NCBI RefSeq assembly: GCF_000284115.1 | Contig: NC_017080.1 | Span: forward strand, 2,190,001-2,222,000 | Origin: Phycisphaera mikurensis NBRC 102666 | GTDB taxonomy: Bacteria > Planctomycetota > Phycisphaerae > Phycisphaerales > Phycisphaeraceae | Direction: 5' to 3' | DNA: 32,000 nt | Part shown: piece by piece, positions 1 to 6,046 of the stretch | Position numbering within the stretch: position 1 is the first letter of the stretch | How the letters are laid out: each line of letters starts with the position of its first letter | The notes under the pieces: model-generated | The model's input: only the letters and a program-made list of their open reading frames with translations | What the model was told of the DNA's origin: nothing | Databases searched by the model: none | Made by a program: the position numbers and the translations under genes

Positions 1-350
1 AGCTGGCGGAGCAGCTCGTCGCGGACACCGCCGGCTCGGCGGCGCGGGTGACGCAAGGGAAGCGGATCGTGGAGGTCACGGACCAGCGGGCGGACAAGGG
101 CGACGCGGTGGACCGCTTCCTCGGCGAAGCGTCGGCGGCGGGCACGCCCTACGCGGCGGTGCTCTGCATCGGCGACGACCGGACGGACGAGGCGATGTTC
201 CGCGGCCGCCGCGGCGACCCCGCGGCGGTCACCGTCCGCGTCGGGCCGGGGGAGACCGCCGCGGCATTCCGCGTGGCCGGCACCGATCGCGTGCTCGCGC
301 TGCTGTGCGCCATCGCGGCGGAGCCGGACCGAGCCCTCGCCGGGGTCTAG
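1..350 (+). CDS. otsB: Trehalose-6-phosphate phosphatase (HAD superfamily), C-terminal fragment; the 5' end lies upstream of the window
   Basis: Frame 3 is open from base 3 to TAG 348-350. The translation ...GKRIVEVTDQRADKGDAVDRFL...AVLCIGDDRTDEAMF... carries the K-G and GDDxTDE motifs typical of OtsB-type HAD phosphatases. Codon usage is GC3-saturated. Confidence 0.8.
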   Translation, partial: LAEQLVADTAGSAARVTQGKRIVEVTDQRADKGDAVDRFLGEASAAGTPYAAVLCIGDDRTDEAMFRGRRGDPAAVTVRVGPGETAAAFRVAGTDRVLALLCAIAAEPDRALAGV

Positions 351-436
351 CGTTGCTCGCCGCCGACCGCCTCCGGCCCGCTCGCCCGGGCGCTCGCGGA
401 GGAGAAGGCACCCGAGGTTCCGGATCGATCGGCTCC

Positions 437-1516
437 ATGACCGTCTCGCACCCGCCACGCCCGCCACGCCCCGCCGAGCCGCGGACCCTGCTGAGCGCGC
501 TGCTCCGCGGAGGCCCGGCGGCGGGCCGCGGTGCCGTCGAGGCGGCGACGCTGCACGGCTCTTTCGCCGGGGTGGCCGCGGTTGTCGCCCTGCCGCTGCG
601 GAACGAGGCGGAGCTGATCGGCCCGATGCTCGCGGCGCTCGAGGCGTCGATCGGCCGCACCGATCTGGCCTGCGGCCTCGTCGCCGTCGCGAACGACACC
701 GCCGACGAATCGCCGGGCGTGATCCGCGGCTGGGCGGAGCGGACGGGCCACGCCGCGGCCGTCTGCGAGGTGCGCCTCGATCCGGAGGTCCGCGGCGCCC
801 CGCACGCGCGGCGCCTGGCGATGGACCTCGCCGCTCGCCTGGCGCCGGACGCGCTTCTCCTGACGACCGACGCCGACTGCCGCGTCGGCGCGGACTGGAT
901 CTCCGGGAACGCCACGTGGCTGGCCGACGGCGCGGTGCTCGTGTGCGGCGCCGTCGACACGGACGAAGCGGAGATCGCGGCCCTGCCCGGCCTCGTCGAG
1001 GCGTGCGGCGTCGCCGAAAGCCGCTTGTACCGGCTGCTCGAGGCGCGGTGGCGCGAGCTCGTGCCCGACGGCTCGCGGCGCTTCGTCCAGCGGGCGATGG
1101 GGGCCAGCATCGCCCTGCGGGCGAGCGACTACCTGGAGCTCGGCGGGTTGCCGACCCCGCGCTCGAGCGAGGACCGCGCCCTCGCCACCGAGGTCCGGCT
1201 GCGGGGCCGGCGCATCGAGACGCCCGAGGACGTGCGCGTCGTCGCGTCCTGCCGCCTCCTCGGGCGGGCCGAGGGCGGCATGGCGGGGGCGCTGCTCGAC
1301 CGCACCCGCTCGCCGGATCCGGAGTGCGACGAGGCTCTCGTTCCCTGGCCGGTGCTCGAGGCCCGCGCCGCCGCCTGGCGGGAGATCCACGCCAGCGGCG
1401 TCGCCGACCCGCACGGCGTGTTCGAGCGGGCCTGCGACGTGCGGCCGGGCCTGGTGGCGGAGCGGATGCGGCTGAGCGCGGTCCGCGCGGCGCTGGAAGC
1501 GGTGGACGCGGGTTGA
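437..1516 (+). CDS. Family-2-like glycosyltransferase (359 aa)
   Basis: ATG at 437 is the first start clear of otsB; the GTG at 305 in the track overlaps otsB. The fold pattern is GT-A: AAVVALPLRNEAELIGPMLAALEAS..., VAVANDTADES, and the DxD-like LLLTTDADCRV. The stop TGA 1514-1516 overlaps the next gene's ATG (TGATG). Confidence 0.7.
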   Translation: MTVSHPPRPPRPAEPRTLLSALLRGGPAAGRGAVEAATLHGSFAGVAAVVALPLRNEAELIGPMLAALEASIGRTDLACGLVAVANDTADESPGVIRGWAERTGHAAAVCEVRLDPEVRGAPHARRLAMDLAARLAPDALLLTTDADCRVGADWISGNATWLADGAVLVCGAVDTDEAEIAALPGLVEACGVAESRLYRLLEARWRELVPDGSRRFVQRAMGASIALRASDYLELGGLPTPRSSEDRALATEVRLRGRRIETPEDVRVVASCRLLGRAEGGMAGALLDRTRSPDPECDEALVPWPVLEARAAAWREIHASGVADPHGVFERACDVRPGLVAERMRLSAVRAALEAVDAG

Positions 1517-2661
1517 TGGCGCCTCCCCCCGCACCCGCCGCCGCCCCTTGCCCCGCCACCGAGCGGGGGAAGCGAGCCGATCCGGAGGACCGGTCGCTGC
1601 TGGCCGCGATCGACGGCCGCGCGGCCGCCGCCGACCGCGGCGAGGCCGATCTTTCCCGCGAGGTCGCCGCGCTGCGGCGGGCCGGCTGGCTCGCCGCCCC
1701 GCTGCCCGCCGCGGACGGTGGCCTGGGGTGGGGCACCGAGCCCGCCGGCACCCCGGGCTGCTTCACCGCGTTGCGGCAGCTCGGCCGCGTCTCCCTGCCG
1801 GTCGCCCGGATCTTCGAGGGCCACGTCAACGCGGTCGCTCTGGTCGCGCTCTACGGAGCCGACACGCTCCGCGGCAACGCCTTCGACGCGATCCGCGGCG
1901 GCGGCTGCTTCGGCGTCTGGGGGGCGGACGCCCCGGGCGACGCCGTCACGCTGCGGGGCGAGGGAGAAGCCCTCCGGCTCGCGGGAGCGAAGGACTACGC
2001 GTCCGGCCTCGGCCTGCTGTCTCACGCCGTGGTGTCCGCCCGCGTGGAAGCGGGGACGCAGCTGCTGCTCGTGCCCGTCGGCGACGCCGCCCGCGGCCGC
2101 GGCGACACCTGGCGCCTCGCCGGGATGCGGGCCACACGCTCGGGCCGGTACCGCTTCGACGGCGTCGATCCCGGCGCCGACGCCGAGCTGGGCGGCCCCG
2201 ACGACTGGTTCCGCGAGCCGCACTTCGAGGGCGGCGTGTGGCGCTACTGCGCCGCCCACCTGGGCGCCGCGGAGCGGCTGTTCGCCGAGATGCGGGACGC
2301 CCTGGCGGCCCGCGACCGGGCCGGCGACCCGCACCAGCAGGTCCGCCTCGTGCGGGCCGCGGTCGCCGTCGAGTCCGCCCGGCTCTGGATCGAGCGCGCG
2401 GCCCGCCGCGTGCAGGCCGCCGACGCCCATGCCGACGCCGCCGCGGTGTCGCTGCTCGCCCGGGAGGTCACGCAGGACGCCTGCCGCGACGTCGTCCGGA
2501 TCGTCGAGGAGGCGCTGGGGCTCGCCGCGCACGCCTGGGGCCCGATCGAGCGGACGCGGCGCGACCTCGCCGCCTTCGTCTGCCAGGCCGCGCCCGACGA
2601 CAAGCGTGCCCGCGCCGCCGAGGCCCTCGTCGCCCGCGGGGTGCTGCCGGAGCACCTCTAG
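1516..2661 (+). CDS. Acyl-CoA dehydrogenase-like flavoprotein (381 aa)
   Basis: ATG 1516 overlaps the upstream TGA; an in-frame TTG at 1513 is also possible. The size and segments RIFEGHVNAVALV, GMRATRSG, WRYCAAHLGAAERL and RRDLAAFVCQ resemble the three-domain ACAD fold. High GC3. Confidence 0.65.
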   Translation: MAPPPAPAAAPCPATERGKRADPEDRSLLAAIDGRAAAADRGEADLSREVAALRRAGWLAAPLPAADGGLGWGTEPAGTPGCFTALRQLGRVSLPVARIFEGHVNAVALVALYGADTLRGNAFDAIRGGGCFGVWGADAPGDAVTLRGEGEALRLAGAKDYASGLGLLSHAVVSARVEAGTQLLLVPVGDAARGRGDTWRLAGMRATRSGRYRFDGVDPGADAELGGPDDWFREPHFEGGVWRYCAAHLGAAERLFAEMRDALAARDRAGDPHQQVRLVRAAVAVESARLWIERAARRVQAADAHADAAAVSLLAREVTQDACRDVVRIVEEALGLAAHAWGPIERTRRDLAAFVCQAAPDDKRARAAEALVARGVLPEHL

Positions 2662-3977
2662 TGGTGCCCGACCGGCCCGAGGGCGTGGTGCTGGACCGTG
2701 CGGCGGACGCCCCGTGGGTCGGCCTCGACGAGCTGTGCCCGACTCCGGGCCTCGTCGTCCTCGTCCCGCACCCCGACGACGAAAGCCTCGGCTGCGGGCT
2801 GGCGCTCGCCGCGGCCGCGGCCGCCGGGCGGCGGATCACGCTCGTCCTGCTGACCGACGGCGAGGGCTCGCACCCCGGCTCGGCCACGCACCCGCCGGAG
2901 GTGCTGGCCCGGCTCCGGCGGGCGGAGTTGGACGAGGCCATCGACGCGCTCTGCCCGGACGAAGCTCCGCGGGTGGTCCGCCTCGGCCTGCCCGACGGCC
3001 GCTGCACCGCCGACGACGCCCTCGCCCACCTCGACGCCGCCCGGGCGTTGCTCGACGACGCCGCGCCCGCCACCGTCTGGACCACCTGGAGCGGGGACCC
3101 GCACTGCGACCACGAAGCCGCCGCCGCCCTCGCCGAAGCCCTCGCCGCGGATCCCGCGGTGGCCGTCTGGAGCTACGCCGTGTGGGGCCGCTTCGGCCCC
3201 GCCCGCGCCTCCACCCCCGGCCTCCGCCGCTTCGCGTGCGACGAGATGCGGCCGCGGAAGCGTGCCGCCGCCGGTGCCCACCGCTCGCAGCTCACCCCGC
3301 TGATCGCGGACGCCCCCGACGCCTTCCTCATGCCCGAGGCGTTGACCGAGCACTTCCTCGCGGCGCCCGAGCTGTTCCTCCCCGGCACCGGCCGGCCCGC
3401 CGACCGCCGCGCCACCTTCGACGCGTTGCACGCCGGCGACGCCGACCACTGGTCCGTCACCACCAGCGGGTACGAGCGCCAGAAGCGGGCCGTCACGCTG
3501 GCCGCTCTCCCGCGGCCCGGCTACGCCCGCGCCCTGGAGGCCGGCTGCGGCATCGGGGTCCTCACCGCCGAGCTGGCCCCCCGCTGCGGCGAACTGCTCG
3601 CCCTGGACGTCTCGCCGAACGCCGTGGAACGGGCGAGGGTTCGGCTTGCGCGTCACGGGCACGTCCGCGTCGGGGTGGCCGAGCTGCCCGCAGGATGGCC
3701 CGCCGGGACGTTCGACCTGATCGTCCTCTCCGAGCTGCTCTACTTCTTGAGCGCCGACGAGGTCGCGGACCTCTCCGTCCGCGCCGCCGCCGCCCTGGCA
3801 CCCGACGGCGTCTGCTTGCTGGTGAACTGGACCGGCCCCAACGACCTCCCCCTCGATGGCGACGCCGCGGCCGGAGCCTTCCGCGACGCGGCCGGCACGC
3901 GGTGGCACGTCCTGCGGGCCGACCGCCACGAGGGCTTCCGCCTCGACCTGCTGCGGGCGGCAACCCGCGGCGGCTGA
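2661..3977 (+). CDS. Fusion protein: N-terminal PIG-L/LmbE-family N-acetylglucosaminyl deacetylase plus C-terminal NodS-like SAM-dependent methyltransferase (438 aa)
   Basis: GTG 2661 overlaps the upstream TAG (TAGTG). The N-terminal half has the LmbE signatures VLVPHPDDESLG and GDPHCDHEAA. The C-terminal half (from about nt 3400) has SAM motif I LEAGCGIGVLT. It also has a NodS-like context: YERQKRAVTL..., LALDVSPNAVERAR, FDLIVLSELLYFL. One uninterrupted frame joins the two halves. Confidence 0.8.
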   Translation: MVPDRPEGVVLDRAADAPWVGLDELCPTPGLVVLVPHPDDESLGCGLALAAAAAAGRRITLVLLTDGEGSHPGSATHPPEVLARLRRAELDEAIDALCPDEAPRVVRLGLPDGRCTADDALAHLDAARALLDDAAPATVWTTWSGDPHCDHEAAAALAEALAADPAVAVWSYAVWGRFGPARASTPGLRRFACDEMRPRKRAAAGAHRSQLTPLIADAPDAFLMPEALTEHFLAAPELFLPGTGRPADRRATFDALHAGDADHWSVTTSGYERQKRAVTLAALPRPGYARALEAGCGIGVLTAELAPRCGELLALDVSPNAVERARVRLARHGHVRVGVAELPAGWPAGTFDLIVLSELLYFLSADEVADLSVRAAAALAPDGVCLLVNWTGPNDLPLDGDAAAGAFRDAAGTRWHVLRADRHEGFRLDLLRAATRGG

Positions 3978-4034
3978 TGCGGACGCCCGCGCGGCCGCCC
4001 GGGGGACTGCCGCCCGGGCGAACGGAGGCGTGCG

Positions 4035-4080
4035 CCGCGGACCGCGGCGTTTCGGCGCGTCCGCGGCCGGCGGTCCGCGG
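4035..4080. repeat. REP-like 46-bp palindromic element, locus A (CCGCGGACCGCGG-N20-CGGCGGTCCGCGG; right arm 12/13)
   Basis: Read directly. The left arm 4035-4047 is embedded in a 17-bp perfect palindrome, CGCCGCGGACCGCGGCG (4033-4049). The spacer is cgtttcggcgcgtccgcggc. The element ends 35 bp upstream of the korA ATG. Confidence 0.85.
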
Positions 4081-4114
4081 CGCCGGGGCCGCTGGATCCC
4101 CTAGCTTGGCCGCG

Positions 4115-6046
4115 ATGCCCGCCGCCGCAGCCACCGCTTCCGCTCCCGAAACCGCCGCCCGCCGCTCGATCGTCGTCCGCTTCGCGGGCGATTCCGGAGA
4201 CGGCATGCAGCTGGCGGGCACGCAGTTCACCGACACCTCGGCGATCTTCGGCAACGACGTCGCGACCTTCCCGGACTTTCCCGCGGAGATCCGGGCGCCC
4301 GCCGGCACCGTGGCCGGCGTGTCGGGTTTCCAGGTGCACTTCTCCAGCGACGACATCTTCCACCCCGGGGACCACGTCGACGCGCTGATCGCGATGAACC
4401 CCGCGGGCCTCAAGGCGCACCTCAAGGACGTGACCCCCGGCGGTCTCGTGATCGTGAACGCCGACGAGTTCACGAAGACGAACCTCAAGAAGGCCGGGTA
4501 CCCGACGCCGGAGGGCTCGAAGGAGCCGTACAACCCCCTCGAGGACGAGGAGCTGTTCCGCAACCTCCGCCTGCACAAGGTGCCGGTGACCAAGCTGAAC
4601 CAGGAGGTGCTCCGAGCGGGCAACGCCGAGCACGGCTGGGGCCTGGACCCGCGCTCGATCGCCCGCTGCCGCAACATGTGGGTGCTGGGCCTCGTGTACT
4701 GGCTCTTCGACCGGCCCCTGGCCACGACCGAGGAGCACCTGAACCAGACCTTCGCGGTCCGCAAGAAGCTGCCCGCCGTCGCCGCGGCGAACATCCAGAG
4801 CCTCCGCGCCGGGTGGAACTACGGCGAGACGGCGGAGATCGTCGCCGAGCGGGCCCGCGTGGAGCCGGCGGACATCGCCCCGGGGGTCTACCGGAAGGTG
4901 ACCGGCAACGAGGCGTTGTCGATGGGGCTCATCGCCGGCGGCAACCTCGCGGCGAAGGACATCGTGTACGCGACCTACCCGATCACACCGGCGTCGGACA
5001 TCCTGCACAACCTCGCGCCGATGAAGCACTTCGGCGTGAAAACCGTGCAAGCCGAGGACGAGATCGCCGCGGTGTGCGCCGCGATTGGTGCCAGCTTCGC
5101 CGGCCAGATCGGCATCACCGGCACCTCCGGGCCGGGCCTGGCGCTCAAGGCCGAGGCGATGGGGCTGGCGGTGGTGACCGAGCTGCCGCTGATCGTGATC
5201 AACGTGCAGCGCGGCGGGCCGTCCACCGGCCTGCCGACCAAGACCGAGCAGAGCGATCTCCTGCAGGCGGTGCACGGCCGCAACGGCGATGCCCCGGTGG
5301 TGGTGCTGGCGCCCGACTCGCCGGGCGACTGCTTCCGGGTGGGCATCGAGGCGATCCGCGTCGCGCTCACGCGGATGGTGCCGGTGGTGATCCTCACCGA
5401 CGGCTACCTCGCCAACGGCAGCGAGCCCTGGGAGGTGCCCTCGGCCGCGGACTTCCCGGCGATCGAGGTGGAGCACGCCACCGCCGCCCAGATCGCGGAT
5501 CCCGACGGCGAGGGCTTTCTCCCGTACAGCCGCGACGAACACGGCGCCCGGCCCTGGGCGATCCCCGGGGAGCCCGGGGTGGAGCACCGCATCGGCGGGC
5601 TCGAGAAGCAGGATCGCACGGGCAACGTGAGCTACGACCCCGAGAACCACCAGCGGATGACGGACCTGCGTGCCGCGAAGGTGGCCGCCGTCGCGGACCT
5701 CGTGCCCGACATCGAGGCCCTGCAAGGTCCCCCGAGCGGGCCGCTGCTCGTGCTGGGCTGGGGCGGCACGCGCGGGTCCATCACGGCGGCGGTGCAGGCG
5801 GCGCACGAGCGGGGCCAGGCACAGGTCGCCCAGGCGCACCTGCGCCACCTCAACCCGTTCCCGAGGAATCTCGGCGCGTTCCTCGCCGGCTACGAGCGGG
5901 TGCTGATCCCCGAGCTGAACATGGGCCAGCTGCTGCTGCTGATCCGCGGGAGCTTCTGCGTGCCGGCCGTCGGCTTGAACAAGGTGAAGGGCAAGCCGTT
6001 CCTGGTGGAAGAGCTGCTGGCGGCGATCGACGAGCAGCTCCGCTGA
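4115..6046 (+). CDS. korA: 2-oxoglutarate/2-oxoacid:ferredoxin oxidoreductase, alpha subunit (fused gamma-alpha type, 643 aa)
   Basis: ATG 4115. The N-terminus RFAGDSGDGMQLAG...FPDFPAEIRAP is gamma-domain-like. It is followed by TGNEALSMG..YPITPASDIL...AEDEIAA...GTSGPGLALK...GGPSTGLPTKTEQSDL and the C-terminal LIPELNMGQL. This is the typical KorA architecture. Confidence 0.9.
   Translation: MPAAAATASAPETAARRSIVVRFAGDSGDGMQLAGTQFTDTSAIFGNDVATFPDFPAEIRAPAGTVAGVSGFQVHFSSDDIFHPGDHVDALIAMNPAGLKAHLKDVTPGGLVIVNADEFTKTNLKKAGYPTPEGSKEPYNPLEDEELFRNLRLHKVPVTKLNQEVLRAGNAEHGWGLDPRSIARCRNMWVLGLVYWLFDRPLATTEEHLNQTFAVRKKLPAVAAANIQSLRAGWNYGETAEIVAERARVEPADIAPGVYRKVTGNEALSMGLIAGGNLAAKDIVYATYPITPASDILHNLAPMKHFGVKTVQAEDEIAAVCAAIGASFAGQIGITGTSGPGLALKAEAMGLAVVTELPLIVINVQRGGPSTGLPTKTEQSDLLQAVHGRNGDAPVVVLAPDSPGDCFRVGIEAIRVALTRMVPVVILTDGYLANGSEPWEVPSAADFPAIEVEHATAAQIADPDGEGFLPYSRDEHGARPWAIPGEPGVEHRIGGLEKQDRTGNVSYDPENHQRMTDLRAAKVAAVADLVPDIEALQGPPSGPLLVLGWGGTRGSITAAVQAAHERGQAQVAQAHLRHLNPFPRNLGAFLAGYERVLIPELNMGQLLLLIRGSFCVPAVGLNKVKGKPFLVEELLAAIDEQLR

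Follow-up and report, generated by a model that had tools for sequence, protein, structure and literature searches.

A gene of Phycisphaera mikurensis fusing a PIG-L deacetylase domain to a NodS-family methyltransferase domain, and its widespread four-component cassette

Results and Discussion

A bifunctional gene with two intact domains

A stretch of 32,000 nucleotides of Phycisphaera mikurensis NBRC 102666 (contig NC_017080.1, positions 2,190,001 to 2,222,000 of the forward strand; this whole stretch is called the window below) carries a fused gene that encodes a PIG-L deacetylase domain followed by a NodS-family S-adenosylmethionine (SAM)-dependent methyltransferase domain. It is a genuine bifunctional gene and both of its domains are intact. 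The fused gene stands in a cassette with genes for a GT2-like glycosyltransferase and a flavoprotein of acyl-CoA dehydrogenase (ACAD) fold, and the chances that it encodes a bifunctional enzyme of a glycosylate-deacetylate-N-methylate route are considered to be about even. The fusion is already named in RefSeq and is common, so it is not new as a sequence feature; N-methylation of the freed amine is what we infer.

Translation of the fused gene has yielded 438 residues with the terminal stop codon as the only one. An earlier reading of the sequence (the original prediction) had described a single frame of 438 codons with the motifs PHPDDE, HCDH and LEAGCGIGV, and this was borne out by the translation, the motif positions and the Pfam matches (Table 1). 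The G+C content was 0.90-0.97 at third codon positions and about 0.5-0.6 at second positions, with one forward-strand phase throughout 2641-3960, the junction region 3366-3434 included, and this unbroken phase indicates that there is no hidden frameshift. Relatives with 81, 78, 75, 55 and 50% identity, as well as many that are more distant, keep the same fused frame, which makes the assembly-derived loss of a stop codon very unlikely. The upstream stop codon TAG (2659-2661) overlaps the GTG of the fused gene, and a GGAG sequence at 2649-2652 is compatible with either GTG (2661 or 2664). The public copy of the protein has 437 residues and was probably called from the second GTG.

The AlphaFold2 model of the fused protein showed a mean predicted local distance difference test (pLDDT) value of 88. 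Most of each domain exceeded 90, and lower values were confined to the N-terminus, one loop and the junction (67-76 for residues 243-258). The PIG-L domain ends at about residue 242, and not at about 235 as originally proposed, and about residues 243-259 mark the beginning of the methyltransferase domain, its NodS-type N-terminal helix included. Residue invariance was scored in an alignment of 20 fused relatives. The zinc and catalytic residues of the first domain and the SAM-binding residues of the second were invariant and both Pfam cut-offs were passed, in agreement with the view that neither domain is degenerate.

Table 1. Coordinates of the fused gene, its domains and motifs, the neighbouring genes, and promoter-like motifs at other surveyed loci (L numbers).
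Feature	Position	Strand	Details
Fused PIG-L deacetylase::NodS-family methyltransferase gene	2661-3977	+	438 aa from GTG 2661, 437 aa from GTG 2664
PIG-L/LmbE domain	2748-3386	+	About aa 30-242; PHPDDE 2766-2783 (aa 36-41), HCDH 3102-3113 (aa 148-151); terminates with conserved PELF motif
Junction	3387-3434	+	aa 243-258, TGRPADRRATFDALHA; equivalent to the N-terminus encoded by the stand-alone methyltransferase gene of split relatives; no linker added
NodS-family class I SAM methyltransferase domain	3435-3959	+	About aa 259-433
Methyltransferase motif D-H-W	3444-3452	+	
Methyltransferase motif YERQKR	3471-3488	+	
Methyltransferase motif I, LEAGCGIGV	3534-3560	+	aa 292-300
Methyltransferase motif LALDV	3597-3611	+	Acidic end of beta-2
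Methyltransferase motif FDLIVLSE	3711-3734	+	
Trehalose-phosphatase (OtsB-type) gene, 3' end	3-350	+	Pfam Trehalose_PPase, E 6.6e-14; coding phase
GT2-like (GT-A fold) glycosyltransferase gene	437-1516	+	Cassette component 1, 359 aa; start 353 TTG or 437 ATG
ACAD-fold flavoprotein gene	1516-2661	+	Cassette component 2, 381 aa; ATG overlaps upstream stop
EcfG-type motif	L028:5668, L049:5757	+	Directly upstream of ACAD-like or opposite-strand GT2 gene
EcfG-type motif	L051:9416, L059:9603, L077:2407, L083:9498	-	Directly upstream of ACAD-like or opposite-strand GT2 gene

The PIG-L/LmbE domain

The Pfam model PIG-L (PF02585) matched residues 33-160 with 81.2 bits (cut-off 28.2), covering profile positions 2-127 of 129. 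Invariant positions of this domain were H37, P38, D39, D40, E41, R86, E89, D112, D146, H148, D150 and H151. The His-Asp-His zinc site and the catalytic Asp of the (A/P)HPDDE and HxDH motifs are present, and the corresponding roles are presumably played by H37, D39, D40, H148, D150 and H151, by analogy with MshB and BshB. The motifs of the domain align with TT1542 and BshB1, those around R86, E89 and D112 with the R-x-x-E and (L/F)PDG motifs of both proteins, and its characterised relatives in the Protein Data Bank (PDB) are all deacylases of N-acetylglucosamine (GlcNAc) or of N-acyl-glucosamine. From these similarities, the domain is most likely a GlcNAc-type de-N-acetylase. The equivalog models of named de-N-acetylases (BshB1, BshB2, MshB and Mca) were scored far under their cut-offs (42.8 against 195 for BshB2, 18 against 224 for MshB), so its substrate would be a new one and none of those already known.

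The NodS-family methyltransferase domain

Residues 261-374 matched the Pfam model NodS (PF05401) with 52.1 bits against a cut-off of 24. The domain has the features of class I SAM-dependent methyltransferases (motif I, E293-A-G295-C-G-I-G, and D316 at the end of beta-2), and its alternating beta/alpha (Rossmann-like) fold was predicted with pLDDT values of 95-98. The invariant residues were D262, W264, Y271, E272, K275, E293, G295, C296, D316, S357 and E358, the first five of which lie in a NodS-specific N-terminal element (DPW...F/YE..K/R) that is common to the domain and NodS; in this element, placed ahead of motif I, GDADHWSVTTSGYERQKR aligns with DDPWRLDDNPFERERH of NodS.

NodS is the nearest characterised enzyme to this domain, both by sequence and by fold. 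The top sequence match in the PDB was 4ISC (E 7.6e-32), a putative methyltransferase of Pseudomonas syringae solved by structural genomics, and the second was NodS (3OFJ, E 8.5e-14). The matches after NodS were amine N-methyltransferases, namely phosphoethanolamine N-methyltransferases and the N-3'' methyltransferase 5U18, which is listed next to gentamicin methyltransferases. In the Foldseek search, 4ISC reached a template-modelling (TM) score of 0.90 with 44% identity over the alignment, and NodS (3OFK) was superposed over its whole chain with a TM score of 0.83 and a root-mean-square deviation of 2.0 A (197 columns, 196-residue chain). Unlike the domain in the window, 4ISC is a stand-alone protein of 164 residues. 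In a tree that also holds NodS sequences it sits among the cassette methyltransferases, beside a split gene of Pseudomonas turukhanskensis.

The partner proteins of the cassette

In the window the genes are ordered gt-acad-pigl::mt and spaced by 0-3 nt, the fused gene being last, and the three are predicted to be translationally coupled as a four-domain cassette. The glycosyltransferase showed 34% identity (E 3e-30) to the GT2 protein of a split cassette of Gluconacetobacter and the flavoprotein 40% identity (E 5e-69) to its ACAD-like partner; by these similarities the components in the window are orthologous to those of Gluconacetobacter. The glycosyltransferase is very divergent, with a Pfam score of 18 bits that is under the cut-off, and contains an invariant T144-D145-x-D147 motif. 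The profile of its family matched the GT2 enzymes PcManGT, ArnC, GtrB and DPMS, and these matches prompted the consideration of a membrane-bound, polyprenyl-phosphate-dependent glycosyltransferase. This candidate was rejected: a hydrophobic segment of transmembrane grade was found in none of the three cassette proteins, so a membrane-bound GT2 enzyme is not taken as the default, and all of them are predicted to be soluble and cytoplasmic.

The flavoprotein gave weak Pfam matches to Acyl-CoA_dh_1 and Acyl-CoA_dh_N. The best match of its family profile was the ACAD-fold monooxygenase DszC (E 1.4e-27), followed by acyl-CoA dehydrogenases and MsuC, and the amino-sugar N-oxygenases KijD3, DnmZ and ORF36 were also matched. 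Near the site of the catalytic Glu in medium-chain acyl-CoA dehydrogenase, the family consensus is RDLxxYLRQxxPD, with no conserved Glu. The identity as a canonical acyl-CoA dehydrogenase is doubted on account of the DszC and MsuC matches and of this missing Glu, the margin over true acyl-CoA dehydrogenases being small. Judged from these profiles, a role as oxygenase or oxidase seems at least as likely as one as dehydrogenase.

Conservation of the cassette and fusions among its components

A word-indexed search has revealed 415 relatives of the fused protein, many of them fused (430-510 residues) and others of about 245 residues with the PIG-L domain only, and an exhaustive HMMER scan (E <=1e-30) found 319 cluster representatives at the 50% identity level. 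A survey of 84 loci of at least eight phyla (80 loci from named species, three from assemblies and the window) was carried out by comparing six-frame open reading frames (ORFs) with hidden Markov models (HMMs) made for the four components. The PIG-L and methyltransferase domains were encoded by one ORF in 52 loci and by separate neighbouring genes, adjacent and often overlapping, in the other 32, in line with the expectation that the two domains would be found elsewhere as adjacent genes. All four components were present within the stretch fetched in 79 of the 84 loci, and the ACAD-like gene was located directly upstream of the PIG-L gene in nearly all loci; what the original prediction had called an otherwise anonymous operon is a widespread cassette. 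The loci come from Actinomycetota, Bacteroidota, Pseudomonadota (alpha, beta and gamma), Deinococcota, Acidobacteriota and Rhodothermota, to which the window adds Planctomycetota.

Fused relatives are named 'bifunctional PIG-L family deacetylase/class I SAM-dependent methyltransferase' in RefSeq. The members of this family, for example those of Nakamurella, Microbacterium, Agrococcus and Arthrobacter, have the same architecture, the same invariant residues and the same neighbours as the gene in the window (ACAD-like gene upstream, GT2 gene nearby). Further fusions were found among the four components: ACAD::PIG-L::MT, PIG-L::MT::GT2 and GT2::PIG-L::MT, where MT is the methyltransferase (P0255, P0274, P0262, P0288 and P0263). 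A GT2::ACAD fusion probably exists as well, as suggested by two loci (L005 and L032) in which both genes share one stop-to-stop frame; in a 779-residue protein of Deinococcus radiodurans (L084:172-2511) the Pfam matches are solely to ACAD domains, at residues 428-750. That many lineages encode the two domains in separate adjacent genes and other lineages encode them in a single gene indicates that the domains are functionally coupled, and the multiple fusions among the four enzymes are strong comparative evidence for what would be one pathway. The length of the interdomain linker varies from 0 to about 50 residues in the alignment of fused relatives, which argues against a conserved tunnel, and the channelling of the amine intermediate suggested in the original prediction is left without support.

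Proposed pathway and comparison with known systems

In the proposed mechanism, the GT2 enzyme would attach an N-acetyl-hexosamine, most likely GlcNAc from UDP-GlcNAc, to a cytoplasmic acceptor, and the Zn-dependent PIG-L domain would next strip the N-acetyl group. The NodS-family domain would then use SAM to methylate the freed 2-amino group, and the flavoprotein might oxidise the amine or the aglycone. The fusion would supply a fixed 1:1 stoichiometry and the proximity of two consecutive steps. The deacetylate-then-N-methylate chemistry is the best hypothesis available from the sequence comparisons, with a likelihood that reaches an even balance at most and may fall slightly short of it.

The same order of steps is known from Nod-factor synthesis. 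A passage of PMC11681206, citing Geelen 1995 and Cakici 2010, states that NodS methylates chitooligosaccharides de-N-acetylated by NodB, and the earlier statement that NodB creates the free amine which NodS methylates is correct according to it.

Comparative support comes also from a Gloeothece plasmid protein of 1158 residues (L090:2958-6434) with GT2, NodS-family and CE4 polysaccharide-deacetylase domains. Its family, named 'trifunctional glycosyltransferase/class I SAM-dependent methyltransferase/polysaccharide deacetylase' in RefSeq, gave 1323 matches, and among the best 120 of the 1323 all contained PF05401 and PF01522 and most of them also PF00535. These trifunctional proteins (about 1150-1250 residues; cyanobacteria, Brocadia and Chitinophagaceae) are like the cassette in the covalent joining of a NodS-family methyltransferase, a de-N-acetylase and a GT2 enzyme, and unlike it in the CE4 fold of the deacetylase, in the lack of an ACAD-like partner in the polypeptide and in a GT2 domain of a different type. 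NodS-family methyltransferases thus accompany a GT2 enzyme and a de-N-acetylase in three different arrangements, and the deacetylases concerned have two unrelated folds. The fusions with CE4 domains in such a large family make the deacetylate-then-N-methylate chemistry plausible, and they lend support to the idea that the same logic has been assembled independently.

Mycothiol (MshA/MshB), bacillithiol (BshA/BshB), glycosylphosphatidylinositol (GPI; PIG-A/PIG-L) and aminoglycoside pathways share the PIG-L catalytic motifs with the cassette. In these pathways GlcNAc is attached, the acetyl group is removed and the amine is exposed for the next enzyme. They differ from the cassette in using GT4 glycosyltransferases and in the fate of the amine, which is acylated or ligated and not methylated, and the BshB, MshB and Mca models score far under their cut-offs on the PIG-L domain of the window.

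Several observations weigh against the proposed glycosylate-deacetylate-N-methylate route. The established pathways that combine a glycosyltransferase with a PIG-L enzyme (mycothiol, bacillithiol and GPI) use GT4 and not GT2 enzymes. A literature search found no biochemical or genetic study of the fusion, of the cassette members or of 4ISC. The gathering score of the Pfam model NodS was also passed in 7 of 14 control genomes, including Escherichia coli and Bacillus subtilis, and with such a permissive cut-off the Pfam label 'NodS' alone is weak evidence for a NodS-like function. On the NodS equivalog NF041650 the domain scored 68.7 bits against a cut-off of 300, aligned to profile positions 11-137 of 190, and three bona fide NodS sequences, drawn from nodBC-S contexts, formed a 100%-supported clade with a branch length of 2.5 outside all the cassette methyltransferases in the tree that places 4ISC among them. 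Later Foldseek neighbours include the O-methyltransferases DnrK, MfnG and MmcR, the C-methyltransferase CurJ, halide methyltransferases and DhpI, so the methylated atom is not fixed by homology. The description of the domain as NodS-like consequently stands at the level of the family (PF05401, the N-terminal element and the structural superposition) and fails at the level of NodS itself, given the equivalog score and the separate branch. From sequence and fold, the C-terminal domain is classified as a broad NodS-family member that is not NodS. The HMM comparison did not place it in a methyltransferase family unrelated to NodS, such as an O- or C-methyltransferase clade, an assignment that the original prediction had regarded as fatal to itself.

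Alternative explanations

The methyltransferase could belong to the same pathway and act on another atom (a hydroxyl, carboxyl, thiol or carbon) or before deacetylation, the fusion then reflecting only a shared pathway. This account is rather unlikely. It gains from the O-, C- and halide methyltransferases and DhpI found among the structural neighbours past 4ISC and NodS, from the long separate branch of true NodS, and from the generic models Methyltransf_12, Methyltransf_25 and Methyltransf_11, which score nearly as high on the C-terminal domain as the permissive Pfam model NodS. However, the only family member to have been characterised N-methylates a de-N-acetylated amine, the next sequence matches are also amine N-methyltransferases (phosphoethanolamine enzymes and 5U18), the family-specific N-terminal DPW...YE..K element is common with NodS, and de-N-acetylases of two different, unrelated folds are repeatedly paired with domains of the NodS family. 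A PIG-L domain working as an amidase or hydratase on a non-sugar compound, like Mca or GalB, in a cassette that handles a non-glycoside metabolite or a xenobiotic, is considered improbable. The PIG-L family does include members that are not deacetylases, and both the low scores on the BshB2 and MshB equivalogs and the divergence of the GT2 protein agree with this possibility; yet a GT2 gene accompanies the cassette in 79 of the 84 loci and is fused to the PIG-L::MT protein in some, and the invariant R86, E89 and D112 match motifs found in TT1542 and BshB1.

Two further explanations can be given very little credit. Close split relatives have the two genes overlapping in different frames, so a one-base error could turn two real genes into an apparent fusion through a lost stop codon or an indel, but the same fused frame and junction sequence are present in independent metagenomic relatives with 81, 78, 75 and 55% identity, the codon-position G+C phase is continuous and the source genome is 99.97% complete in 2 contigs, so that an assembly or sequencing artefact is hardly conceivable. 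A genuine lipochitooligosaccharide (Nod-factor-type) system in which a PIG-L enzyme stands in for NodB is just as hard to believe. It is suggested by the triad of GT2 enzyme, deacetylase and NodS-family (PF05401) methyltransferase encoded together, which parallels NodC/NodB/NodS. Against it, the deacetylase has the PIG-L fold instead of the CE4 fold of NodB, the methyltransferase falls below the NodS equivalog and in a clade separate from NodS, and the GT2 protein is predicted to be soluble and not a NodC-type membrane synthase. The cassette has no NodA and adds an ACAD-fold flavoprotein, no nodA, nodB or nodC was found in the window, and the cassette is present in many non-symbiotic bacteria.

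If the glycosylate-deacetylate-N-methylate route is right, the cassette might yield an N-methylated and possibly further oxidised glucosaminyl small molecule that serves as a stress protectant or redox cofactor in many phyla under general-stress control; this extension is tentative and on balance doubtful. It would amount to an undescribed metabolite, new in the way that mycothiol and bacillithiol were, in bacteria including Deinococcus, Acinetobacter, Pseudomonas and soil Actinomycetota. The pathway would be present in hundreds of species of at least eight phyla, among them those of model and clinically relevant genera, and its cassette is repeatedly tied to trehalose, catalase and general-stress promoters. 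The fused protein offers a convenient single polypeptide for the study of deacetylation followed by N-methylation, and a structure of a cassette-type methyltransferase (4ISC) exists.

Origin of the fusion

For a maximum likelihood tree of 92 rows, the PIG-L and methyltransferase domains were concatenated. On this tree the fused or split state requires 10 changes, at least seven of them being forced by well-supported branches, against a mean of 26.8 when the states were shuffled. The window and two fused metagenomic relatives were placed inside a clade with 99% support in the SH-like approximate likelihood ratio test (SH-aLRT), together with split pairs of Erythrobacter and Qipengyuania. This clade nests in a mostly split alphaproteobacterial group, and the large fused actinobacterial clade lies across the tree. 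The gene order is GT2-ACAD-PIG-L-MT in the window and in the related Alphaproteobacteria and ACAD-fusion-GT2 in Actinomycetota. The nesting of the window among split alphaproteobacterial pairs indicates that its fusion arose separately from that of the actinobacterial RefSeq family.

In the split relatives the PIG-L protein ends in '...PEIFIGG*' and the methyltransferase starts in another, overlapping frame with 'VADARSHRRKTFDAL', and the sequence across the junction of the fused gene is '...PELFLPG-TGRPADRRATFDAL', with the two gene ends joined directly to each other. The fusion plausibly took place by one indel at the overlapping stop and start codons of the PIG-L and methyltransferase genes, and the fact that a single indel of this kind suffices would explain why the fusion has recurred.

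No full-length match was found in 300 other Planctomycetota genomes, including those of the same family and order, and vertical inheritance within Planctomycetota was rejected on this basis. The cassette was therefore probably acquired horizontally. The G+C content of the window, 77-79% in positions 1-4000 and 69-77% in positions 4001-32000 (where a single 1-kb bin close to the far end is at 77% as well), is compatible with this acquisition. On a contig labelled Stenotrophomonas maltophilia strain P13 (L065), a fused gene was placed in the Microbacterium clade (99%), beside M. telephonicum, which suggests assembly contamination or a recent transfer.

Stress-related gene context

Genes for trehalose synthesis (OtsA/OtsB) adjoin the cassette in the window, on a plasmid of Acinetobacter ursingii (L088) and in a metagenome-assembled genome of a betaproteobacterium (L061). 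A large catalase (KatE-type) gene adjoins it in 10 loci of Alphaproteobacteria, Betaproteobacteria and Actinomycetota (L002, L014, L024, L031, L034, L044, L051, L061, L082 and L089). In 6 of the 19 loci of Alphaproteobacteria, an exact EcfG-type motif, GGAAC-N16-17-CGTT, precedes a cassette gene by no more than about 170 nt (Table 1); at the background of 0.013 per kb-strand over all loci, about 0.1 such matches would be expected, and this enrichment points to a stress-induced pathway. Given its repeated location next to genes for trehalose synthesis and catalase and downstream of general-stress promoters, the cassette probably yields a small amino-sugar compound related to stress. Two papers on general-stress regulons did not mention the cassette genes in their main text. 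The only literature mention of the cassette that was found is in the legend of a figure on BLUF photoreceptors, which names 'Acyl-CoA dehydrogenase; GlcNAc-PI de-N-acetylase; Methyltransferase domain; Glycosyltransferase' around the BLUF photoreceptor genes of Acinetobacter without comment, in a gene context that adjoins blsA.

Upstream of the cassette in the window, 86 nt separate it from the end of the trehalose-phosphatase gene. A search for a sigma-70-like promoter or an intrinsic terminator in positions 1-4400 found none, a result that is uninformative at 77% G+C. In three Curtobacterium loci (L033:5456, L038:5436 and L042:5484) the GGAAC-N16-17-CGTT motif precedes the ACAD-like gene by about 400 nt, and it may simply be a sequence conserved among close relatives.

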